From Isoptericola sp. BMS4 (GTDB lineage: Bacteria; Actinomycetota; Actinomycetes; Actinomycetales; Cellulomonadaceae), in the NCBI RefSeq assembly GCF_011634835.1, contig NZ_SIRP01000001.1, positions 4,099,092 to 4,163,091 of the forward strand: 64,000 nucleotides of DNA. The letters run 5' to 3'. This document shows, in pieces, positions 4,757 to 48,989 of this stretch; within the stretch, counting starts at the first letter, position 1, and every line of letters starts with the position of its first letter. The translations under genes were made by a program, and so were the position numbers. The notes beneath the pieces are model-generated. The model was not told where the DNA came from. It saw only the letters and a list, made by a program, of their open reading frames with translations, and made no database searches.

Positions 4757-5788
4757 ATGACACCAGAACCGACTGACAGGCCGTACGCCGGACCGGTCGT
4801 CTCCGTCCGGGAGGCGCGACGCCGCTACGGCGCGTTCGAGGCCGTGCGCGGCGTCGACCTCGAGGTGGGGCGCGGCGAGCTCGTCGCCCTGCTCGGCACG
4901 AACGGCGCCGGCAAGACGTCCCTGGTCGAGCTGGTCGAGGGCCTCGCCCCGGCCGACGGGGGCCAGGTCCGCGTGCTCGGCCGGGACCCCTACCGCGAGC
5001 GCCGCGCCGTCGTCCCGCACGTCGGGGTGATGCTGCAGAACGCGGGCTTCTCCGCCGACCTCACCGTGGCAGAGACGGCCCGCATGTGGGCGGGCACGCT
5101 GACCCGGCCGCGGCCGGCGGGCGAGGTGCTCGACGCCGTCGGGCTCTCGCACCGCGCCCAGGTGCGCGTCGTGAGCCTGTCGGGCGGCGAGCGACGCCGC
5201 CTCGACCTCGCCCTGGCGGTCCTGGGCCGGCCCGACCTGCTCGTCCTCGACGAGCCGACCACCGGCCTGGACCCGGAGAGCCGGCAGGCCACCTGGCGCC
5301 TGGTGCGCGGCCTCCTGGACGACGGCGTGACCGTGCTGCTGACCACCCACTACCTGGCGGAGGCGGAGGAGCTCGCCGACCGGATCGCCATCATGGACGC
5401 GGGCCGGGTGGTGCGCTCCGGCACGGTCGCGGACGTCGTCGCTGCCGAGCCCGCGCGGATCGAGTTCGTGCCCCACGACGCGGGCGGCGCACCGCTCGTG
5501 CTCACCCCGGACGACCTGCCGGTGCTGGCGGGCGTCCCGAGCACGGGACATGCCCCGGACCGCGGTCCGACGGCGGAGCGCGGCCGGGTCCGGCTGCGCA
5601 CCGAGCGCCTGCAGGAGGACCTGACCACGGTGCTGCTCTGGGCGCGCGAACGTGGGCTGCGACTGCACGAGCTGGAGGCCCGCCCGGCGTCGCTGGAGCA
5701 GGCGTTCCTGGCGCTCGCCGAGGCCGGCGGTGCGCCGGACCACCAGACCGGTCGGACCACGCACGTCACCGAAGGGACGGCAGCATGA
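4757..5788 (+). CDS. ABC transporter ATP-binding protein
   Basis: Walker A GTNGAGKTS, ABC signature LSGGERRRL, Walker B LLVLDEP, plus a C-terminal extension. The start overlaps the downstream permease gene by ATGA. Confidence 0.85.
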   Translation: MTPEPTDRPYAGPVVSVREARRRYGAFEAVRGVDLEVGRGELVALLGTNGAGKTSLVELVEGLAPADGGQVRVLGRDPYRERRAVVPHVGVMLQNAGFSADLTVAETARMWAGTLTRPRPAGEVLDAVGLSHRAQVRVVSLSGGERRRLDLALAVLGRPDLLVLDEPTTGLDPESRQATWRLVRGLLDDGVTVLLTTHYLAEAEELADRIAIMDAGRVVRSGTVADVVAAEPARIEFVPHDAGGAPLVLTPDDLPVLAGVPSTGHAPDRGPTAERGRVRLRTERLQEDLTTVLLWARERGLRLHELEARPASLEQAFLALAEAGGAPDHQTGRTTHVTEGTAA

Positions 5789-12063: not shown

Positions 12064-12140
12064 ATCAGCGCGGCAGTTCCGGATCCGGGCGGCAGTTCGA
12101 ACTGCCGCTCAGATACTGAGCTGCCGACGCGATCCGGGCC
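12064..12140. repeat. Intergenic repeat family B, copy 1 (contains the perfect palindrome GGCAGTTCGAACTGCC)
   Basis: About 80% identical over roughly 72 bp to 42596-42672. Both copies sit directly 3' of a plus-strand gene. Confidence 0.5.
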
Positions 12141-21588: not shown

Positions 21589-22233
21589 CGGAGGTCCTTC
21601 CGGGCGGGCGCCGGGTGCGGCGCCGGAGAGGGCAGGCAGGGTGAGAGGGTCAGGAAGTGAGGCGGCGGCCACGGCCATCAGCTCGAGCCGGCGAGGAACA
21701 GGGTCCCGGGCGGACCGGGGCGACGACGACGTCGTCTGGGCACGATGCCGGTGAGGTCAGTCGAGCTCGCACATTCGACCCGCGGACACCGCGCGACAGC
21801 ACATCGCGCCGCGACGGCAGGTGCGCGCGGTCGTCGGTGCGGCGGGAGCGGTGCGGGGCATGGCCCCACAGGACCATCCGCGATCGACCTTCGCCAAGCG
21901 GGACGCCCGGGAATCTCGCTATGCGAGCCAAAATGCGTCCGCATCGCGAGAAGTGTGGCGTGGGCCACTCTCAGGGACGCAAAGGACCCCTCGCGCACCC
22001 ACCAGAGCTCACCTACCCTTGCTGCCTTCCGGCCCTGGGGGAGTTCGGCGAGATGATGCCGCACGAGGGGTCTGCCACCAGCCTAACCGAGACCCGCGCC
22101 GAGGAGAAAACCCGCGCCGCGCGCGGCGTCCCCGAGCGCGCCCGACCTGCCGATTTCCAGCCACCGGCCACCGTCCGGTAGGCTTCTGGGGCTGCCAGCG
22201 CACCGTTCTCGACGACGGGCGCCGGCTGCTCCA

Positions 22234-22318
22234 GGAGGATTCGCCTAGCGGCCTATGGCGCACGCTTGGAAAGCGTGTTGGGTTCACGCCCTCGGGGGTT
22301 CGAATCCCCCATCCTCCG
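22234..22318 (+). tRNA. tRNA-Ser (anticodon GGA)
   Basis: Acceptor stem GGAGGAT/ATCCTCC, 3-bp D-stem, anticodon loop TTGGAAA, long variable arm (class II), T-arm GGGGGTTCGAATCCCCC, discriminator G. CCA is not encoded. Confidence 0.85.
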
Positions 22319-22323
22319 CCGCA

Positions 22324-22362
22324 CGAAGGGGCCCGCACCGGTACGCCGGGGCGGGCCCCTTC
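22324..22362 (+). terminator. Hairpin immediately 3' of tRNA-Ser
   Basis: CGAAGGGGCCCGC-(13 nt)-GCGGGCCCCTTCG, 13-bp arms. Confidence 0.4.
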
Positions 22363-22376
22363 GCCGTCCCGGCCCC

Positions 22377-22463
22377 GATGCCGAACATGGCCCCCCTCGA
22401 TGCCGAACATGTGGTTGGTCCGGAACTCGGGGTTCCAGATCCGGACCAACCACATGTTCGGCA
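22377..22463. repeat. Palindromic repeat family A, copy 1 (24-bp perfect arms TGCCGAACATGTGGTTGGTCCGGA / TCCGGACCAACCACATGTTCGGCA with a 15-nt spacer, plus a partial extra arm)
   Basis: Perfect inverted repeat; related copies lie at 23301-23380 and 36464-36549. Confidence 0.6.
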
Positions 22464-22513
22464 GCCCGCCGAGGACCGAATTCTGATGGCGGCCCCTGCA
22501 CCGCCCGGCGACG

Positions 22514-23300: not shown

Positions 23301-23380
23301 ACCATGCCCTCCCTCGACGCCGACCATGTGGTAGAGCAGGCATTCCGTCCCTGAGTCCCTGATCAACCACATGTTCGGCA
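23301..23380. repeat. Palindromic repeat family A, copy 2 (degenerate left arm)
   Basis: ACCATGCCCTCCCTCGACGCCGACCATGTGGT...TGATCAACCACATGTTCGGCA, starting immediately after the methyltransferase stop. Confidence 0.5.
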
Positions 23381-35790: not shown

Positions 35791-36444
35791 TCAGCCGAAC
35801 GCCGGGGAGCTCGTGCGCGAGCGCTTGAGCTCGAAGAAATCGGGGAAGGCCGCCAGCGCGACGGCGCCGTCGAAGATCCGCAGCGCGTCCTCGCCGCGCG
35901 GGATCCGCGTGAGCACGGGGCCGAAGAACGCCACGCCGTCCACGTGGATCGTGGGGGTGCCGACGTCGTCGCCCACCGGGCCCATGCCCGCCTCGTGCGA
36001 CTCGGCGAGGCCGGCGTCGTACGCGTCGGAGGTCGCGGCGTCGGCGAGCGACGCGGGGAGCCCGGCCTCGGCGAGCGCCTCGACGGCGACCGCGTCGTAG
36101 TCCTTGCGCCCGCCCGGGTGTATACGCGTGCCGGCCGCCGTGTAGAAGGCGGAGAAGGCCTCCGGTCCGTGGTCGGCCTGCACGGCGGCCGCGACCCGGC
36201 CGATGCCGCGCGACGACTCGATCCTGGCGCGGTAGTCGGCGGGGATGTCGCGATCCTTGTTGAGCAGGTAGAGGCTCATCAGCCGGAACGTGAGGCGCAC
36301 GTCCCGGTGCGCGGCGACCTCCAGCGCCCAGCGCGAGGTGATCCACGCGAACGGGCACAGCGGGTCGACGTAGACGTCGACGGCGGGCCCGGCGGCGGTG
36401 GAGGTGGGGGCGGTCTCAGGCACGGTGGCGGTCCCGGAAGTCAC
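35791..36444 (-). CDS. DsbA-family thioredoxin-fold protein (2-hydroxychromene-2-carboxylate isomerase / FrnE-like)
   Basis: [18 protein letters not shown] (CPxA thioredoxin-like motif). GTG start. Confidence 0.7.
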
Positions 36445-36463
36445 GGTCGCCACCCTACCGACC

Positions 36464-36549
36464 CTTCTCCGGCACCCCTGTGGTGCCGAACATGTGGTTG
36501 ATCCCGTTCTCGGCAACTCGATCCCGGACCAACCACATGTTCGGCAGCG
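36464..36549. repeat. Palindromic repeat family A, copy 3
   Basis: TGCCGAACATGTGGTTGATCCCG-(15 nt)-TCCCGGACCAACCACATGTTCGGCA, in a divergent intergenic region. Confidence 0.6.
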
Positions 36550-36558
36550 AGGATCCGC

Positions 36559-36828
36559 ATGCTCGACAGGTGGCGGAGCGGGAGCGATACCCTCGGGCCC
36601 GTGGGCAACGTCCTGTGGAAGAGCGTCGCGACCGTCGTCGGTGCCGCGGCGGTCGCCCTCGTCATGCTCTGGGTCGTCCTGCGCGGGCGCGCCTGGGCCT
36701 GGATCCCCTTCATCATCGCCTTCGGCATCTTCGTGCGCGAGCTGCGCTACCTGCAGCGTCGGCGGCGCCCGCCGGACGCCCGCTTCGACGAGCCTCGCCG
36801 GGAGCGCGGCCCCGACCGCCGGGCGTAG
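36559..36828 (+). CDS. Small hypothetical membrane protein (89 aa, two predicted transmembrane helices)
   Basis: An ORF beginning 10 bp after repeat A copy 3; hydrophobic core with an Arg-rich tail. Weak support. Confidence 0.35.
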
Positions 36829-36923
36829 CCCCCACGGACTCCCTGCACGGAACTCCCGCCCAACCCCCCGGGGGGCGCGACGCCGACGCGCCCGGCCTGC
36901 GCCGCCCACTCCTTCCTCTGCCC

Positions 36924-36952
36924 TTGACGCCTCCGGCGCCGCCTCGTACTGT
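36924..36952 (+). promoter_or_regulatory. Candidate promoter TTGACG-N17-TACTGT with the overlapping inverted repeat ACTGTCAA-N12-TCGACAGT
   Basis: Consensus-like hexamers about 210 bp upstream of the GH87-like gene, followed by a relatively AT-rich leader. Confidence 0.4.
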
Positions 36953-37160
36953 CAATCACGCAAAAACTCGACAGTCAGCCAGCACAAAGCAGTGCATCAT
37001 CTGCAACTCTCGAATTTGAGCCTGTACCACAAGTCCGGGACATCCCTCCGGGCCGTGTCCAGGCCGACCGACCCACCCCTGACCACGCGCGGCCCACGCA
37101 CCGCCGCTCGGCCGTCGGCCAGGGCTGGCGACCCCGCACGGGCGGGAGGACGAGGACGTC

Positions 37161-40100
37161 ATGAGAAGACCCTGGAAGCACACGATCGTGGCAGGGGCGA
37201 CAGCCGCGCTGATCGCACCCCTGGGCGCCGTCGCCGTCGCGGGCGCCGCCGAGTCCGCCGACCTGGCGGCCGACCGCCCCGTCACCGCGTCGTCGACGAC
37301 GCAGACCTATGCCGCGCACCACGCCACCGACGGCGACACCGGCACCTACTGGGAGGGAGCCGGCGGGCAGTACCCGGCGCACCTGACGGTCGACCTCGGC
37401 GCCGAGGCGACCGTCGACCGCGTCGTCGTCGCTCTCCCGCCTCTCTCGGTGTGGGCCCCACGCACCCAGACGTTCAGCGTGCTCGGTCGCAGCGACGGCG
37501 AGGCCTCGTTCCGGGTCCTCGAGGCGTCCGCCGAGCATTACTTCGACCCGGCCGACGGCAACACGGTCGACATCCCGCTCGACGCCGAGGTCGACGAGGT
37601 CCGCCTCGCCTTCACCGCCAACACCGGCGCCGGCAGCGGCCAGGTCGCCGAGCTGCAGGTCTGGGGAACGCCGACCGATGACCCCGACCCGACGGACCCG
37701 CCGACCGACCCGAGCGGGCCGAACCGCGCGGCGGACCGACCGGTGTCGGCCTCGTCGACGCAGTGGACCTATGCCGCCGCGAACGCCGTCGACGACGACG
37801 TCACCACCTACTGGGAAGGCGCGGCCGGCCGCTACCCGTCGACGCTCGACGTGAACCTCGCCGGGCCGACGCAGCTCAGCACGGTGCGCGTGCGCCTCGA
37901 CCCCTCCGACGCGTGGGGGCCGCGCACACAGACCTTCTCCGTGTGGGGGCGCACCGGGACGGAGGAGTGGCACGAGCTCTCCGCGTCCGCCGGTCATGCC
38001 TTCGCGCCCGCTGACGGCAACGTCGTCGACGTCCCCGTCAGCGGGACCGCGACGGACGTGCGGGTACGGTTCACCGGCAACACCGGGGCGGGCAACGGAC
38101 AGGTCGCCGAGCTCGAGGTCTACGGAGCACCGGAACCGAACCCCGACCTCACCGTCACCGCGATTGCGACGTCCCCCGCGCAGCCCACGGCGACGATCCC
38201 CGTGACCCTCACCGCGACCGTCGAGAACGTCGGAGACCTCGCCTCGACGCCGACCACCGTCGAGGCCGCCGTCGACGGGAGCACCGCCGGCTCGGCGGAC
38301 GTCGGCGCGCTGGAGCCCGGCGCGAGCGGCCAGGTGGAAATCGCCACCGGGACGCACCGCGCCGGGGAGCACACGGTGGGCGCGGTCGTCGACCCCCAGG
38401 ACGCCGTCGCCGAGCTCGACGAGACGAACAACGCGCGCACCCGGTCCGAGAAGCTCACCGTCGGCGAGGCCCCGGGACCGGACCTCGAGGTCGTCGCGGT
38501 GTCCTCGACCCCGTCGTCCCCTGCCCCCGGCGACGACGTGACCTTCGGCGTCCAGGTGCGCAACCGCGGGGACGAACCGGTCACCGCGGGTTCGGTGACG
38601 CGCGTCGTCGCGGGCGAGATCACCCTCGACGCCACGACTCCGGCGATCGGTCCCGGCGAGACGGTCACGGTCACGCCGGACGGGACGTGGACCGCGACGG
38701 ACGGCGGGGCCACCGTCACCGCGACGGCCGACGCGACCGACGTCGTCGACGAGACCGACGAGGACAACAACACCGGCACGCTCAGCGTGACCGTGGGGCG
38801 CGGCGCTCCCGTGCCCTACACGACGTACGAGGCCGAGGACGGGCGGTACGAGGGCGAGCTGCTGCAGACGGACCCGCTGCGCACGTTCGGGCACACCAAC
38901 TTCGCCACCGAGTCCTCCGGCCGCGAGTCGGTGCGGCTCACGAGCACCGGCGAGCACGTCGCGCTCACCTCCACCGTGCCGACGAACTCGATCGTCGTGC
39001 GCAGCTCGATCCCGGACGCCCCCGGGGGCGGGGGCCAGGAGAAGACGATCAGCCTCTACGCGGACGGCGAGTTCGTGCAGAAGCTGACCCTGTCCTCGCA
39101 GCACTCGTGGCTGTACGGGACGACGGACGCCCCCGAGGGGCTCACGAACACCCCCGGGGGCGACGCGCGCCGGCTCTTCGACGAGTCGCACGCGCTGCTC
39201 GACCGGGACTTCCCCGCCGGGACGGAGTTCCGTCTCCAGCGCGACGCCGACGACGACGCGGAGTTCTACGTCATCGACCTCGTCGAGCTCGAGCAGGTCG
39301 CACCCCCGTCACAGAAGCCCGCGCAGTGCACCTCCATCACGGAGTACGGCGCCGTGCCGGACGACGGCGCCGAGGACACCGACGCCATCCAGGCCGCGGT
39401 CACCGCCGACCAGCAGGGCGACATCGACTGCGTGTGGATCCCTGCCGGCCGGTGGCGCCAGGAACGCAAGATCCTCACCGAGGACCCCGACCGCACCGGG
39501 TACAACCAGGTCGGCATCCGCGACGTGACCATCCGTGGGGCCGGCATGTGGCACTCGCAGCTCTACAGCCTGATCGAGCCGCAGGACGCCGACGGCATCA
39601 ACCACCCGCACGAGGGCAACTTCGGGTTCGACATCGACGACGACGTCCAGATCTCCGACATCGCGATCTTCGGCTCGGGCCGCATCCGCGGTGGCGACGG
39701 CGGCGCGGAGGGCGGCGTCGGGCTCAACGGACGGTTCGGCAAGGACACGAAGATCTCGAACGTGTGGATCGAGCACGCGAACGTCGGCGTATGGGTCGGT
39801 CGCGACTACTCGAACAAGCCGGAGCTGTGGAACCCCGCCGACGGGCTCCGGTTCTCCGGCATGCGGATCCGCAACACCTACGCGGACGGCATCAACTTCT
39901 CCAACGGCACGCGCAACTCGTCTGTGGTGGGCTCGGCCCTGCGCAACACCGGCGACGACGCCCTGGCCGTGTGGGCGAACCCGTACGTGAAGGACACGTC
40001 CGTGGACATCGCGCACGACAACACGTTCCGCAACAACACCGTGCAGCTCCCGTGGCGCGCCAACGGCATCGCCATCTACGGCGGCCGCGACAACTCGATC

Positions 40101-40541
40101 GAGAACAATCTCGTGTACGACACCATGAACTACCCCGGCATCATGCTGGCGACCGACCACAGCCCGCTCCCGTTCTCCGGGACCACGCTCGTCGCGAACA
40201 ACGGGCTGTACCGCACGGGTGGGGCGTTCTGGAACGAGGACCAGGAGTTCGGCGCCATCACGCTGTTCCCGCAGACGCACGACATCGTCGGGGTCACGAT
40301 CCGCGACACCGAGATCGTCGACTCGACCTACGACGGCATCCAGTTCAAGAACGGCGGCGGCGCCATGCCCGACGTCCGGATCACGGACGTGCGGATCGCG
40401 GACTCCACCAACGGCTCCGGGATCCTCGCGATGGGCGGGGCGCGCGGCAACGCGATCCTGGAGAACGTCACCGTGACCGGGTCCGCCGAGGGCGACGTCG
40501 TGACGGAACCCGGCTCGACCTTCGAGATCACCGGGACGTGA
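37161..40541 (+). CDS. Secreted GH87-like (mycodextranase / alpha-1,3-glucanase-type) protein with two discoidin (F5/8 type C) domains and CARDB repeats
   Basis: Signal peptide; two discoidin-like modules (TYAAHHATDGDTGTYWEG...; WTYAAANAVDDDVTTYWEG...); CARDB-like repeats (LTVTAIATSPAQP..., LEVVAVSSTPSSPAPGD...); C-terminal beta-helix catalytic region (NTGDDALAVWANP..., NGIAIYGGRDNSIENNLVYD). Confidence 0.6.
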   Translation: MRRPWKHTIVAGATAALIAPLGAVAVAGAAESADLAADRPVTASSTTQTYAAHHATDGDTGTYWEGAGGQYPAHLTVDLGAEATVDRVVVALPPLSVWAPRTQTFSVLGRSDGEASFRVLEASAEHYFDPADGNTVDIPLDAEVDEVRLAFTANTGAGSGQVAELQVWGTPTDDPDPTDPPTDPSGPNRAADRPVSASSTQWTYAAANAVDDDVTTYWEGAAGRYPSTLDVNLAGPTQLSTVRVRLDPSDAWGPRTQTFSVWGRTGTEEWHELSASAGHAFAPADGNVVDVPVSGTATDVRVRFTGNTGAGNGQVAELEVYGAPEPNPDLTVTAIATSPAQPTATIPVTLTATVENVGDLASTPTTVEAAVDGSTAGSADVGALEPGASGQVEIATGTHRAGEHTVGAVVDPQDAVAELDETNNARTRSEKLTVGEAPGPDLEVVAVSSTPSSPAPGDDVTFGVQVRNRGDEPVTAGSVTRVVAGEITLDATTPAIGPGETVTVTPDGTWTATDGGATVTATADATDVVDETDEDNNTGTLSVTVGRGAPVPYTTYEAEDGRYEGELLQTDPLRTFGHTNFATESSGRESVRLTSTGEHVALTSTVPTNSIVVRSSIPDAPGGGGQEKTISLYADGEFVQKLTLSSQHSWLYGTTDAPEGLTNTPGGDARRLFDESHALLDRDFPAGTEFRLQRDADDDAEFYVIDLVELEQVAPPSQKPAQCTSITEYGAVPDDGAEDTDAIQAAVTADQQGDIDCVWIPAGRWRQERKILTEDPDRTGYNQVGIRDVTIRGAGMWHSQLYSLIEPQDADGINHPHEGNFGFDIDDDVQISDIAIFGSGRIRGGDGGAEGGVGLNGRFGKDTKISNVWIEHANVGVWVGRDYSNKPELWNPADGLRFSGMRIRNTYADGINFSNGTRNSSVVGSALRNTGDDALAVWANPYVKDTSVDIAHDNTFRNNTVQLPWRANGIAIYGGRDNSIENNLVYDTMNYPGIMLATDHSPLPFSGTTLVANNGLYRTGGAFWNEDQEFGAITLFPQTHDIVGVTIRDTEIVDSTYDGIQFKNGGGAMPDVRITDVRIADSTNGSGILAMGGARGNAILENVTVTGSAEGDVVTEPGSTFEITGT

Positions 40542-40690
40542 CGACCGGCGGTCGGGCGCCGGCCCGGCCGTCCTCGTCCCGGGGCCGGCGCCGCCGTCGC
40601 GGCGCCGGCCCCGCTGCCCGCGAGACAGCGGCGGCCCGCAGGGTAGGCCCGCGACACGACTCCCGGCCGTCCCGGAGTAGCCTCCTGCAC

Positions 40691-41545: not shown

Positions 41546-41881
41546 GAGGTCGGGGAGGGAATGCGGCTGTGGCATCCTGCGTTGTGCAGGACGCCGCCGG
41601 GACCTCCGGCGGCCACAGACACGCAACGTACGTGCTCCGGGGTCGGTGAGATTCCGAGCCGGCGGTGACAGCCCGCGACCCGCGCCTCCTCCGCGAGGCC
41701 GGTTGACCTGGTGGAACTCCAGGGCCGACGGTCAGAGTCCGGATGGGAGGAAGCACGTGCGGCACGCGCCCGGCGACGGGTGGGTGCCGCCGGGCGCCGT
41801 GTCGCCGGCGAGGGCCCCGCGCTCCCGGCGGACGGCCGCCCCTCACCCCGGCAGCCGCTCGACGGACCGGGAGAGTGAACG

Positions 41882-42592
41882 ATGGACGCGATCGACGCGT
41901 TCTTCCACGCCACGCTGACCATCGGCGACCAGTCGCTGCTGTGGCGCGAGATCGTCGGCAACGGCTTCGGCCTGGCCTCCGCGCTGGGCGGGATGCGCCG
42001 CAAGGTGTGGGCCTGGCCCGTCGGCATCGCCGGCAACCTCGTGCTGTTCACCGTCTTCATGGGCTCGTGGTTCGGAGACACGGGCCGCGCCGACATGCTC
42101 GGCCAGGCGGGCCGCCAGGTGATGTTCCTCGTCGTGTCCGTGTACGGATGGGTGCAGTGGCGTCGTACACGACGCGCCGACCTGGAGGTGCGCGCCGACG
42201 GCAAGGTACCGGCGTCGGGCGGGGCGGCCGTGCACCCGCAGTGGGCGACGTGGCCGCAGCGACTCGGCATCGTGGTGGTGATGGTCGGCGGCACCCTCCT
42301 CCTCACCCCGCTGTTCCGCGCCCTCGGCTCGTACGAGCCGGTCTGGTCGGACGCCTGGATCTTCATGGGATCGCTGGTCGCCACGTACGGCATGGCGAAG
42401 GGGTGGGTCGAGTTCTGGCTCGTGTGGGTCGCGGTCGACGTCGTCGGTGTCCCGCTGCTCTGGTCGGCCGACTACTTCGCCACGGCCCTGATGTACGTCT
42501 TCTACGGCGCCTTCACCCTGGTCGGCTTCTTCGTGTGGTGGCGCATCCACCGCCGCGAGCAGGACCGCACCGAGGTTCCCACGGCGACGTGA
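41882..42592 (+). CDS. pnuC: Nicotinamide riboside transporter PnuC family
   Basis: LWREIVGNGFGLASALGGMRRKVWAWPVGIAGN...WVQW...; seven transmembrane segments. Confidence 0.85.
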   Translation: MDAIDAFFHATLTIGDQSLLWREIVGNGFGLASALGGMRRKVWAWPVGIAGNLVLFTVFMGSWFGDTGRADMLGQAGRQVMFLVVSVYGWVQWRRTRRADLEVRADGKVPASGGAAVHPQWATWPQRLGIVVVMVGGTLLLTPLFRALGSYEPVWSDAWIFMGSLVATYGMAKGWVEFWLVWVAVDVVGVPLLWSADYFATALMYVFYGAFTLVGFFVWWRIHRREQDRTEVPTAT

Positions 42593-42595
42593 CGC

Positions 42596-42672
42596 CATCA
42601 GCGCGGCAGTCCGGGATCCGATCGGCAGTCGGAACTGCCGCGCCGATCCGGACATGCCGACGCGATCGTCAC
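42596..42672. repeat. Intergenic repeat family B, copy 2 (GGCAGTCGGAACTGCC variant)
   Basis: About 80% identity to 12064-12140; it lies directly 3' of pnuC. Confidence 0.5.
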
Positions 42673-44812: not shown

Positions 44813-44890
44813 CTCACCTTCGAGGTCGAGGTGCGGGCTCGAGGTCGAGGTGCGGGACCTCGACCTCGAGCCCTCACCTCGACCTCGCGC
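44813..44890. promoter_or_regulatory. Long imperfect palindrome / tandem (GAGGTCGAGGTGCGGG)x2 in the divergent promoter region between the acyl-CoA dehydrogenase and NUDIX genes
   Basis: CTCGAGGTCGAGGTGCGGG repeated twice, then its near-complement CCTCGACCTCGAGCCCTCACCTCGACCTCG. Confidence 0.35.
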
Positions 44891-46954: not shown

Positions 46955-48283
46955 ATGGCCCGCGTGCCGCACCCCGTGAGCTCGCCCGCGCCGCCACCCG
47001 CACGCCGTCCCGCGGCGCTGCCGCGGCTGCTGCGCTCGCCCTGGCTGCTGGCGGCCGGGTTCGTCGCGGTGCACACGTGGGTGGTGCTCGCGGCGATCGC
47101 CTGGGCGTACACGGTCTACGGCGACGTCACGCTGTACGAGTGGTGGGCGCGGCACGGCCTGACGGCCGGCGAGTGGCCCGTGCTGGATTACGACTGGGTC
47201 TACCCCGCCGGCGCCCTGGTCCCCGTGGTCCTCCCCGCGCTCGTCACCGGCGGCCTGCTCGGGTACAAGATCGCCTGGACGGCGATGATCGTCCTCCTCG
47301 ACGCCGTGGCGACGGTCGTGCTGGTGCGGTGCACGCGGCACGGCGTGCTCGGCGCCTGGTGGTGGCTGGTGTTCCTGCTCGCGCTCGGCCCCATCTTCGT
47401 CGGCCGGCTCGACGGCGTGATCGCACCGATGATCCTCGTCGCGCTCGTGCTCGCCGGCCGGCGCCCCGCGCTCGCCACGGCGATCGCCACCGCCGGCGCC
47501 TGGATCAAGATCGCCCCGGGCGCCGTCGTCGTGGCGCTGGCCGCGACCCGCGGACGGGTGCGGGACCTGTGGCGCTCGGTCATGGTCCCCGGCGCGGCGG
47601 TGAGCGTCGTGGTGGTGGGCCTGGCGATCGCCGGCGGGGCGGGCATGCGGGCGTTCAGCGTCTTCGGCCAGCAGGGCGCGCGCACCCTCCAGGTCGAGTC
47701 GGTCGCGGCCACCTGGTTCAGCGTCGCCCGCCTGTGGGACCCGGCCGTGTCCGTCGAGTACAACGACGAGATCTTCACGTACGAGGTGCAGGGCGAGGTC
47801 GCGCAGCGGGTCGCGGGCGCCCTCGACTGGCTGCTCCCCCTGGCCGTGCTGGCGCTCGCCGCGCTGACCTGGTGGGCGGCGCGGCGTCGCCCGGACCACA
47901 CCGCCGACGTCCTCCTCCTCGGGGCGGCGGCGCTGCTCCTCGCGCTCATCGTGTTCAACAAGGTCGGCTCCCCCCAGTTCGTCGCGTGGATCGGGCCGCC
48001 GATGGCCGCCGCGATCGCGCTCGCCACACCGGGACACCGCCGCATCTGGGTGCCGCCCGCCGTGGGCGTGGTCCTCACGGCGCTCGCCACCCACCTGGTC
48101 TACCCGGTCGCGTACGGGGAGTTCCTGTCGGCCGTGCCGTGGATCGTCGTGGTGGAGGCGCTGCGCAACCTCGCGCTGGTCGTGCTGCTCGGCGGCGCGG
48201 CCTGGCGTATGGCCCAGCTCGCCCGCGGCGGGGTGCGTGACAGCCGGGAGCCCCGCGACGAGGCAGGGTCAGCCCTGACCTGA
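46955..48283 (+). CDS. Glycosyltransferase family 87 (DUF2029) integral membrane mannosyltransferase-like protein
   Basis: Polytopic 442-aa protein with ...DYDWVYPAGA...GRLDGVIAPMILVAL...IKIAPG, typical of GT87/PimE-like proteins. Confidence 0.7.
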   Translation: MARVPHPVSSPAPPPARRPAALPRLLRSPWLLAAGFVAVHTWVVLAAIAWAYTVYGDVTLYEWWARHGLTAGEWPVLDYDWVYPAGALVPVVLPALVTGGLLGYKIAWTAMIVLLDAVATVVLVRCTRHGVLGAWWWLVFLLALGPIFVGRLDGVIAPMILVALVLAGRRPALATAIATAGAWIKIAPGAVVVALAATRGRVRDLWRSVMVPGAAVSVVVVGLAIAGGAGMRAFSVFGQQGARTLQVESVAATWFSVARLWDPAVSVEYNDEIFTYEVQGEVAQRVAGALDWLLPLAVLALAALTWWAARRRPDHTADVLLLGAAALLLALIVFNKVGSPQFVAWIGPPMAAAIALATPGHRRIWVPPAVGVVLTALATHLVYPVAYGEFLSAVPWIVVVEALRNLALVVLLGGAAWRMAQLARGGVRDSREPRDEAGSALT

Positions 48284-48805
48284 GGCGGCCTGGCGCTCGG
48301 CGTACGACCGGAACCAGTCCAAGGCGAACCGGTGGGCGGCGATGCCGTAGTCGAGCGTCGCGCGCTGGGAGGCGGCGACGTCGTCGTACCCCGGCGGCAC
48401 CTCCTCGGTGTCGAGCTGCGCGTCCAGCGCGGTGAGCCGGTCCAGGTCGGTCTCGATCCGGTGCGTGACGAGCGGCAGCACCCGGGCCCGGTCGGCCGGC
48501 TCCAGCAGCCCGAGGAAGAAGAGGCGTGGCAGGGCGGCCGCCTCGGCGTCGGGACCGGTGAGCGGGCCGGTCATCCAGGCGTGGAACTCCCGGCTGCCCG
48601 CGTCGGTGACCCGATAGACCGTACGGCCCCGCGCGCCGGCCTCGCCCGCCTCGACGAGGCCCTGGTCCAGGAGCCGGTCCAGGGCGCGCCGGATGCTCCC
48701 GGAGCTCGCGCTGTAGAAGAGCATCACGCCCGCCTCGAAGCTCTTGCCGAGGTCGTACTGGCTCTGCGGCGCGATGAGCAGCAGCCCGAGGATGACGTGT
48801 CCCAT
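48269..48805 (-). CDS. PadR family transcriptional regulator
   Basis: MGHVILGLLLIAPQSQYDLGKSFEAGVMLFYSASSGSIRRALDRLLDQGLVE (winged helix-turn-helix of PadR). Confidence 0.85.
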   Translation of the reverse strand: MGHVILGLLLIAPQSQYDLGKSFEAGVMLFYSASSGSIRRALDRLLDQGLVEAGEAGARGRTVYRVTDAGSREFHAWMTGPLTGPDAEAAALPRLFFLGLLEPADRARVLPLVTHRIETDLDRLTALDAQLDTEEVPPGYDDVAASQRATLDYGIAAHRFALDWFRSYAERQAASGQG

Positions 48806-48823
48806 GCCCCGAGCCTAGCCAAT

Positions 48824-48862
48824 CTGTCTCTGAGACAGGTCTAGTAGACATGTCTCAGAGAC
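48824..48862. promoter_or_regulatory. Candidate PadR operator: two palindromes TGTCTCTGAGACA and TGTCTCAGAGACA flanking AGACATGTCT
   Basis: Located 20-57 bp upstream of the PadR start. All three elements are perfect palindromes. Confidence 0.5.
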
Positions 48863-48989
48863 ACAACGAGAGATTCGCCCGCGACGTCACGGTCGCGCAG
48901 GCGCGTTCACCGCCGGGTCGCGCGTCGTTCACCCGGCACGCCCCCGGCCGCAACCCGCACTCCCTACGGTCACCGCGACGGCGCGTGAC

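Follow-up and report, generated by a model that had tools for sequence, protein, structure and literature searches.

Does the 63-bp palindrome that stands between two divergent genes of Isoptericola sp. BMS4 serve those genes, or was it placed there by a system whose other parts lie elsewhere? The palindrome, here called copy 3, occurs in a stretch of 64,000 nt (NCBI RefSeq assembly GCF_011634835.1, contig NZ_SIRP01000001.1, positions 4,099,092 to 4,163,091 of the forward strand) that is referred to as the window and has a G+C content of 73%. A preliminary description of this DNA had presented copy 3 as the third member of a palindromic family (family A) and as a possible regulatory hairpin. 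Based on comparison with relatives, we favour with moderate confidence the explanation that copy 3 is a lineage-specific insertion and a member of an Isoptericola hairpin family, in the manner of a REPIN (a hairpin-forming doublet of repetitive extragenic palindromes, REPs), i.e., a non-autonomous element whose arms would be bound by a protein that combines a winged helix with a nuclease domain.

Three palindromes of equal length

Copy 3 and its parts are as follows.

36484..36546, no strand: copy 3, a 63-bp palindromic element that by inverted-repeat search and gapped alignment is an insertion specific to the BMS4 lineage
36484..36500, plus strand: left arm of copy 3, 17 bp, TGCCGAACATGTGGTTG, with the invariant core GA.CATG...T
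36530..36546, minus strand: right arm of copy 3, a 17-mer identical to the left arm on the opposite strand
36550..36568, minus strand: outlying third half-site of copy 3, tgtcgagCATGcggatcct, with its own CATG 22 nt beyond the CATG of the right arm

The inverted repeat as a whole has arms at 36484-36504 and 36526-36546 with 95% complementarity. The third copy is real, and the 63 nt first quoted for it (23 nt, a spacer of N15 and 25 nt) proved exact; by contrast to the letters, the coordinates first given, 36464-36549, began 20 nt early and ended 3 nt late. The arm 17-mer TGCCGAACATGTGGTTG was found six times in the window compared to 0.07 occurrences expected, a count reached by 0 of 100 shuffles, and the six 17-mers resolve into three elements of equal length, at 22401-22463 (copy 1), 23318-23380 (copy 2) and 36484-36546 (copy 3). 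Dispersal of the family over about 13 kb, as originally described, was confirmed by a distance of 13.1 kb between copies 2 and 3. When folded as RNA the three copies reached -36 to -52 kcal/mol (z of -5 to -11 versus shuffles), and folding of copy 3 as DNA gave z values of -6.6 and -8.2. At gathering score, Rfam left the three elements unmatched and matched in the window only a flavin mononucleotide (FMN) riboswitch, signal recognition particle (SRP) RNA and tRNA-Ser.

Empty sites in relatives

The orthologous locus was examined in seven relatives: Isoptericola sp. NPDC019693 (L116, L117), two Joint Genome Institute (JGI) metagenomes (L118, L119) and three Sequence Read Archive (SRA) assemblies (L126, L127, L128). 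The gene order common to these loci is luciferase-like, Rv2466c-like, small open reading frame (ORF) and TetR. All seven were found to lack copy 3, and the locus of I. cucumis (L123) that is syntenic with that of the window was likewise free of the palindrome. By MAFFT alignment with L118, a gap of exactly 63 bp faced TGCCGAAC...GTTCGGCA of copy 3, the empty site reading ...CACCCCGGCGG before the junction and GCGACGG... after it. Excision of precisely 63 bp restored the alignment, with the pairwise score rising from 156.5 to 191.5, which agrees with the earlier view of copy 3 as an inserted element. DNA identity to the window was 86-92% for the closest relatives compared (L122, L126, L127 and L128) and about 80% for named Isoptericola species. 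When filled and empty sites were compared, no target-site duplication was seen at copies 1 to 3. As far as sequence comparison goes, these alignments show that in BMS4 an element was inserted, with no target-site duplication, between the divergent promoter regions of a reductase gene and the gene for a 75-aa protein.

The other two copies of the window and their surroundings are listed below.

22401..22463, no strand: copy 1, a perfect 63-bp hairpin between tRNA-Ser and a methyltransferase gene
22379..22397, plus strand: outlying half-site of copy 1, tgccgaaCATGgcccccct
23318..23380, no strand: copy 2, an older copy with 3 mismatches in its left arm, beginning 22 nt past the methyltransferase stop codon
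23296..23314, plus strand: outlying half-site of copy 2, aacccacCATGccctccct

The closest relative, L122, lacked the element at both sites, and both alignments were improved by excision of 63 bp, from 91.5 to 103 and from 93 to 110.5. By this comparison copies 1 and 2 are likewise shown to be lineage-specific insertions. The methyltransferase between them is 70-86% identical across Actinobacteria and, as a conserved resident gene, is not their cargo. Copy 1 is nested inside an older, decayed palindrome of a variant type, which L125 retains intact (CCGACCAGGCGGTTG...CAACCGCCTGGTCGG) and of which L122, like the window, has only a decayed form; the bases of the copy 1 half-site can alternatively be taken as the left-arm remnant of this older palindrome, the right remnant being at about 22488-22503. 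The region downstream of tRNA-Ser has received at least two palindrome insertions (the older variant and copy 1). Just upstream of copy 1, at 21979-22363, are the SRP RNA (minus strand), tRNA-Ser(GGA) and the 18-bp terminator hairpin of the tRNA itself.

Anatomy of the hairpin family

Family members were also found in I. peretonis (L095; one copy, 10 nt past the metE stop codon), I. hypogeus (L104; two copies), I. jiangsuensis (L130; three copies, of which L130c sits after glmS), and two metagenome loci, L129 and L120/L121, the latter with its copy between convergent genes. Among the matches listed in a 17-mer scan of genome contigs, L095 and L104, both from Isoptericola, were the only genuine members, the others being chance single-arm matches; a metagenome scan with a two-arm pattern yielded one additional locus, L120/L121. 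No relevant family match was detected in collections of viral contigs and plasmids. In the literature, the arm sequence retrieved only unrelated polymerase chain reaction primers, and searches on Isoptericola repeats, actinobacterial miniature inverted-repeat transposable elements (MITEs) and DUF559 returned nothing on this hairpin family. Copy density was about 1 per 30 kb in about 163 kb of DNA picked irrespective of element or gene.

Total length was 62-63 nt in all ten aligned copies, the span from CGAACATG to CATGTTCG was 56-57 nt in every copy, and the interiors were unrelated. The arms share the invariant core GA.CATG...T plus its mirror image, and come in variants of a TGGTTG and a CCCTGG type. 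In the alignment of the ten copies, the 24 outer pairs were 89.6% paired versus 32-40% with the partner slid, and 14 of the 24 stem pairs had changed on both sides, with a covariation score that none of 500 shuffles reached. The stems of copy 1 and L095 are perfect and bulge-free; a single 18-nt arm folded at -0.9 kcal/mol (z = -0.25) and forms no stand-alone hairpin. That interiors of unrelated sequence have stayed self-complementary is suggestive of an intermediate in single-stranded or cruciform form, or of arm-to-arm correction. Motifs of the LexA/SOS box (GAAC-N4-GTTC), KstR-like, CRP-like and extracytoplasmic function (ECF)/SigH types were compared with the arms by eye and were rejected based on misfits in spacing and half-sites.

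Two features recur in the flanks. A third half-site of the form C-N-A-N-CATG, a motif defined post hoc, places its CATG 21-22 nt beyond the arm CATG on 9 of 22 sides in 8 of 11 copies (P about 4e-14); the arm-like half-site motif with 22-nt spacing reads CNANCATG. In 9 of 12 copies a CCCTC stretch, also defined post hoc, is present no more than 25 nt from one end, compared to a background of 3%. Counterparts of the flanking half-site and of the C-rich stretch are present in the empty sites of relatives, which suggests that both are features of the target rather than inserted DNA.

The L095 copy (5565-5626) is a mosaic beyond simple descent: BMS4-type arms (…CATGTGGTTG) enclose an inner stem, CGGCCCGTCCG…CGGACGGGCCG, that is shared with all three I. 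jiangsuensis copies, whose arms are of the CCCTGG type (e.g., L130 9817-9878). In a metagenome-assembled genome ('bacterium isolate 2_bin.46', JAUHXC010000072.1; L090 1236-1320), three tandem arm-like repeats CAACCACATGTTCGGCAGGTGC have a 22-nt period equal to the third-half-site phasing of the family; the gene context (PckA, acyl-CoA synthetase) is unrelated, and no homolog of the winged-helix/nuclease protein described below was found in the 8 kb searched. The L090 repeats are probably a chance 17-mer match multiplied by a local tandem repeat, with a distant relative of the family as the alternative.

Hairpins bracket a winged-helix/nuclease gene

At three loci, from three organisms and two independent chromosomal positions, family hairpins bracket a solitary gene for a protein with an AbiEi-type winged helix and a nuclease domain of the Vsr/homing-endonuclease-like kind.

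L104, I. hypogeus: hairpin 112 nt 5' of the start codon; second hairpin 2 nt 3' of the stop codon
L129, metagenome, 65%-identical homolog: hairpin 121 nt 5' of the start codon plus third half-site; the contig ends 49 nt past the stop codon
L130, I. jiangsuensis, 56%-identical homolog: hairpin 122 nt 5' of the start codon; second hairpin 36 nt 3' of the stop codon

The L129 locus is orthologous to that of L104 (neighbouring gene 79% identical). The L130 gene occupies another position in the chromosome, where its neighbours are a luciferase-like gene and acpS/glmS, and is followed by a third copy 600 nt further on, with none in the remaining 19 kb. Given the background of about 1 copy per 30 kb, the clustering of hairpins around the gene is not due to chance. 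An upstream module can be aligned across L104, L129 and L130 in the order arm, arm, third half-site, two GTCCACAG boxes and start codon. The boxes, GTCCACA(G/C), are two direct repeats about 28 nt apart between the hairpin and the start of the gene (L104 6875-6986, minus strand; L129 1840-1937; L130 9879-10000), and could serve either as promoter elements or as another binding site. In all three loci the gene stands alone between housekeeping genes and is not borne by an intron or intein; no AbiEii (DUF1814) toxin gene was found as a neighbour in their gene tables and ORF lists. BMS4 itself encodes, outside the window, P0128 (70% identical to the L104 protein) and two paralogs.

Pfam and PADLOC recognised only the N-terminal AbiEi-type winged helix of the protein, and no NCBIfam model matched it. 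DUF559 (PF04480) reached at best 19.2 bits versus a cut-off of 20.6, in paralogs, and had no match for P0127, P0128 and P0146; some sources label homologs as 'DUF559 domain-containing'. An AlphaFold2 model (pLDDT 91.7, pTM 0.89) was compared by Foldseek, and the first two-thirds of the protein matched the AbiEi antitoxin 6y8q (E 5.5e-5). The remainder is predicted to adopt a Vsr-like catalytic fold in which acidic and histidine residues are conserved, and E274, D276, H281, D290, R293 and N295 were invariant in 28 homologs. The family is large, with 274 cluster representatives at E<=1e-30 and 5,855 at E<=1e-10.

A candidate partner for the hairpins

The promoter of AbiEi contains two 23-bp inverted repeats to which AbiEi itself binds, and for Rv2827c the bound repeats of this kind number four, within -1..-131 (PMC7319586). 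By analogy with this habit of AbiEi-family proteins, the arms of the hairpin are candidate binding sites of the winged-helix/nuclease protein. The third half-site would be bound as well, with the 22-bp phasing placing the sites on the same face of the helix, and the gene-proximal hairpin would be the operator of the protein itself. In I-Bth0305I, which drives DNA mobility, a helix-turn-helix-type DNA-binding region is joined to a Vsr-like nuclease (PMC3239194), and on this analogy we infer that the winged-helix/nuclease protein mobilises the hairpins. The copies dispersed elsewhere would have been seeded as non-autonomous derivatives, helped by the nuclease, beside pre-existing arm-like or C-rich sites, and a single-stranded or cruciform intermediate, or arm-to-arm correction, may lie behind the self-complementarity that they keep.

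Several points weigh against this explanation. Binding, cleavage and transposition by the protein are all inferential, and no homolog of its gene is present in the 64-kb window. The nuclease domain scores below the Pfam thresholds for DUF559 and MTES_1575, and its assignment to the Vsr/EDxHD type is structural only, made from the predicted model. The link between gene and hairpin comes from three loci, of which L104 was noticed post hoc and L129 is orthologous to L104; they belong to I. hypogeus, a metagenome and I. jiangsuensis. The CCCTC and third-half-site motifs were both defined after inspection of the data. Gain of copy 3 in BMS4 is favoured over the alternative of loss in the relatives by parsimony only.

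A broader proposal, which we put forward as tentative, is that the hairpins are non-autonomous partners of an unrecognised class of mobility (or domesticated) endonucleases that would bind three phased half-sites, regulate their own genes and seed new copies at arm-like sites, as a counterpart of REPINs and their REP-associated tyrosine transposases (RAYTs) that does without an HUH enzyme. If true, this could assign a function to the many orphan 'AbiEi antitoxin domain / DUF559' proteins of Actinobacteria, and would provide a testable role for thousands of orphan AbiEi and DUF559 genes and a defined protein-DNA pair (17-bp arm, 22-bp phasing) for biochemistry.

Flanking genes and predicted promoters of copy 3

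The two genes that diverge from copy 3 are the following.

35791..36444, minus strand: gene for an Rv2466c-like mycothiol-dependent reductase (Pfam PF22234, E 1.5e-74), with an alternative in-frame GTG at 36456
36601..36828, plus strand: gene for a small membrane protein of 75 aa (WP_240930652.1), conserved in relatives, third-position GC 0.96

The minus-strand neighbour had been called DsbA-like; its identity is refined to an Rv2466c-like mycothiol-dependent reductase. The distances of 20 and 10 bp assigned to the two sides were approximate. On the reductase side copy 3 lies 27 nt from the first in-frame GTG (36456) and 39 nt from GTG 36444, the start favoured by most gene callers and by a conserved -10 box. 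On the other side it lies 12 nt from ATG 36559 and 54 nt from the conserved GTG 36601. NCBI annotates the small ORF as 75 aa from GTG 36601; the 89-aa ORF is 100% identical to a database protein, and its reading from ATG 36559 has 14 extra codons that are not conserved. Thus, the 89-aa reading over-extends a conserved 75-aa gene. The third half-site of copy 3 overlaps ATG 36559, and homologous sequence occurs in palindrome-free relatives. L126, which has no element, possesses the GGATCCGCATGC stretch that holds this ATG, and L127 and L128 have the stretch in mutated form; it was thus neither produced nor brought in by the insertion. An artefactual origin had been suggested for the small ORF, with a homology search of the 89-aa ORF as a check. 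The search found conserved homologs independent of the repeat, with 74-76% identity and the same syntenic position in palindrome-free relatives, and we conclude that the ORF was neither created by the insertion nor carried with it.

In alignments of the relatives, the blocks beside both start codons were conserved and the centre of the spacer was hypervariable. The minus-strand block is TAGGGT-N7-GTG (start 36444; TAGGGT is the reverse complement of 36452-36457), and the plus-strand block is TACCCT-N7-GTG (start 36601; TACCCT at 36588-36593). Both resemble what we take to be TANNNT -10 boxes 7 nt 5' of a start codon, as in actinobacterial leaderless genes. By a simple sigma-70 and terminator scan, the copy 3 region gave no match, with no T-tract and no terminator-like site in 36300-36750; an intrinsic terminator was therefore rejected, copy 3 lying between divergent starts. 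Copy 3 would be located at about -40 and -55, between two intact predicted core promoters and outside both mRNAs. As it is upstream of both conserved predicted -10 boxes and leaderless-type starts, neither flanking mRNA should contain the hairpin. Where it now stands, copy 3 probably acts weakly or not at all through RNA, and an effect at the DNA level, via protein binding or a cruciform at these distances from two predicted promoters, is possible. For annotation, the palindrome is to be read as a recent insertion and not as a conserved operator of the oxidative-stress-type Rv2466c-like gene; such elements can settle within about 40-55 bp of predicted promoters without disrupting them.

Beyond the small ORF, a segment of about 3.8 kb (36812-40632) separates it from the TetR gene and encodes a 1126-aa alpha-1,3-glucanase-type protein with CatAgl_D1/D2, F5/8 type C and CARDB domains. 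This segment is absent there in all relatives examined, in which the TetR gene directly follows the small ORF.

Alternative origins of copy 3

Four other origins were weighed. The first, which we judge unlikely, is a REP/REPIN-type element moved as a single-stranded hairpin by a RAYT or an IS200/IS605-type HUH transposase encoded elsewhere, with the winged-helix/nuclease gene as a frequent neighbour. The anatomy of the family (inverted conserved ends, a variable hairpin spacer, compensatory changes and no target-site duplication) fits that of published REPINs (PMC3116915), and an apparent preference for insertion beside a short motif is shared with IS200/IS605. Against this origin, a Y1/HUH gene was found neither in the window (about 45 proteins scanned) nor adjoining any copy, a single arm is not a foldable REP palindrome, and the gene bracketed by the repeats encodes the winged-helix/Vsr-like nuclease in three of three loci. 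A survey of RAYTs does not mention Actinobacteria.

To the second we assign a similarly small probability: the palindromes would be immobile operators of a regulon under an AbiEi-like winged-helix protein, and copy 3 would regulate the Rv2466c-like gene, the small-ORF gene or both. AbiEi-family proteins autoregulate via inverted repeats (PMC7319586). The palindrome and its third half-site are conserved upstream of the gene for the protein itself, and copy 3 is at about -40 and -55 of two predicted promoters. By contrast, the dispersed elements come as 63-bp blocks, all or none, which relatives of 86-92% identity lack at the orthologous sites, the genes that flank the elements are functionally unrelated, and several copies lie past stop codons or between convergent genes. 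Self-complementarity also runs through interiors of unrelated sequence, and the protein has a conserved nuclease core.

An ordinary MITE, i.e., a deletion derivative of an insertion sequence (IS) with 17-bp terminal inverted repeats recognised by a DDE transposase, is less likely still. The short length, intergenic position, TG...CA terminal inverted repeats and variable presence among relatives would suit this origin; target-site duplication was undetectable at all three window copies, however, and no IS with these ends was found in about 230 kb of Isoptericola DNA or in plasmid and viral collections. The interiors are unrelated between species yet self-complementary, unlike those of a cut-down IS. 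No transposase or recombinase was detected among the roughly 45 window proteins scanned.

The regulatory RNA hairpin or terminator-like insulator between divergent genes that had first been proposed is doubtful and the least probable of the four: the hairpin is very stable and some members lie just past stop codons (L095 with metE, L130c with glmS, copy 2 with the methyltransferase), but copy 3 has no T-run or terminator-like match, should be transcribed from neither gene as it is upstream of both predicted starts, and has species-invariant 17-bp arms and a phased third half-site that a terminator does not explain.

Other repeats in the window and in relatives

Unrelated to family A is a further repeat family, about 75 nt long, that is found at 12064-12135 and 42597-42665 of the window and at L116 12175-12242. 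Its CGGCAGTT half-sites, of which two are direct and one is inverted, recur about every 20 nt, as in ATCAGCGCGGCAGTTCCGGATCCGGGCGGCAGTTCGAACTGCCGC, and this three-half-site layout resembles that of family A. One copy is just past a pnuC-like gene, and also present at the orthologous L116 site. An FMN riboswitch (41629-41759, 89.4 bits) directly precedes the PnuC/NMN_transporter-family gene at 41882-42592, which presumably encodes a riboflavin transporter of the PnuX type.

At 44821-44887, a palindrome with a 33-bp stem and CGAGGTCGAGGT repeats lies between acyl-CoA dehydrogenase and NUDIX genes; GTCGAG-type hairpins at L116 8105-8140 and L124 14864-14917 are possibly related to it. A low-GC palindrome at 48823-48865, with 21-bp arms TCTGTCTCTGAGACAGGTCTA / TAGACATGTCTCAGAGACA, has on one side the gene for a PadR-family regulator (48269-48805, minus strand) and on the other a choice-of-anchor-I gene in divergent orientation, and is probably the PadR operator. 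Yet another palindrome family (…GTAGCACC(C/T)GGTGA…) occupies orthologous sites downstream of methionine ABC transporter genes in two Isoptericola species (L124 429-478, L125 6173-6230). Taken together, these observations show that Isoptericola genomes carry several distinct hairpin families; the winged-helix/nuclease gene family has several paralogs per genome.

Comparison with known systems

Integron attC sites have core sites R''/R' (RYYYAAC/GTTRRRY), carry extrahelical bases in the folded strand, and form arrays beside intI/attI. Family A resembles them as an imperfect palindrome of about 60 nt with outermost GCCGAAC ... GTTCGGC and in that copies 1 and 2 bracket a single ORF, but differs by one mismatch per core site, by the absence of extrahelical bases, and by copy 3 being a bare 63-bp insertion. 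A reading of copy 1, methyltransferase and copy 2 as an integron cassette was rejected: the methyltransferase is resident and conserved, no integrase is among the window proteins, and there is no attI. MITEs mobilised by DDE enzymes (Correia/NEMIS, ERIC, RUP, BOX) duplicate the target site, and the conserved interior of each goes back to a parent IS. They share with family A the short length, terminal inverted repeats, intergenic location and variable presence, and sometimes affect neighbouring promoters, whereas family A shows no duplication and its interiors differ by lineage yet remain self-complementary.

The EDxHD/Vsr-like homing endonucleases, of which I-Bth0305I is an example (PMC3239194), differ in that the gene described here is free-standing, the N-terminus of its product is AbiEi-like and not NUMOD, and the DNA partner is a hairpin found at dispersed positions in place of one homing site. 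The operators of AbiEi and Rv2827c provide a closer likeness, in the N-terminal AbiEi-type winged helix and in inverted repeats of about 20 bp located about 60-190 nt 5' of the own start codon with extra repeats in phase (PMC7319586). Unlike AbiE, the present system has no adjacent AbiEii toxin gene, has an added C-terminal nuclease, and has its repeat dispersed as discrete insertions.

REPINs have two invariant inverted ends of about 16-17 nt, keep spacer length and hairpin potential with frequent compensatory changes, are extragenic and dispersed without target-site duplication, flank a single enzyme gene, and persist in one lineage (PMC3116915), and all of this is similar to family A. REPINs further occur as many dispersed extragenic copies per genome; the count for BMS4 is three within the 64 kb of the window. 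The family A arms, however, are not REP palindromes, 46 nt separate the arm starts compared to 71 in REPINs, an extra phased third half-site is present, the host is an actinobacterium, and the flanked gene encodes a winged helix with a Vsr-like PD-(D/E)xK-type nuclease and not an HUH tyrosine transposase. Because REPINs are defined by REP palindromes as ends and by a flanked RAYT gene, two features that family A lacks, the system is likened to, and not classed with, the REPINs; by analogy it would be a functional counterpart of REPIN-RAYT with a different enzyme, REPIN-like in its working and not a member of that class. To our knowledge, REPIN-RAYT is the only well-described long-lived population of bacterial hairpin repeats tied to a single-copy enzyme gene. 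If the proposed partnership is true, the Isoptericola hairpins would be a second such system, with a different enzyme and in high-GC Gram-positive bacteria, and this lifestyle would have evolved more than once.
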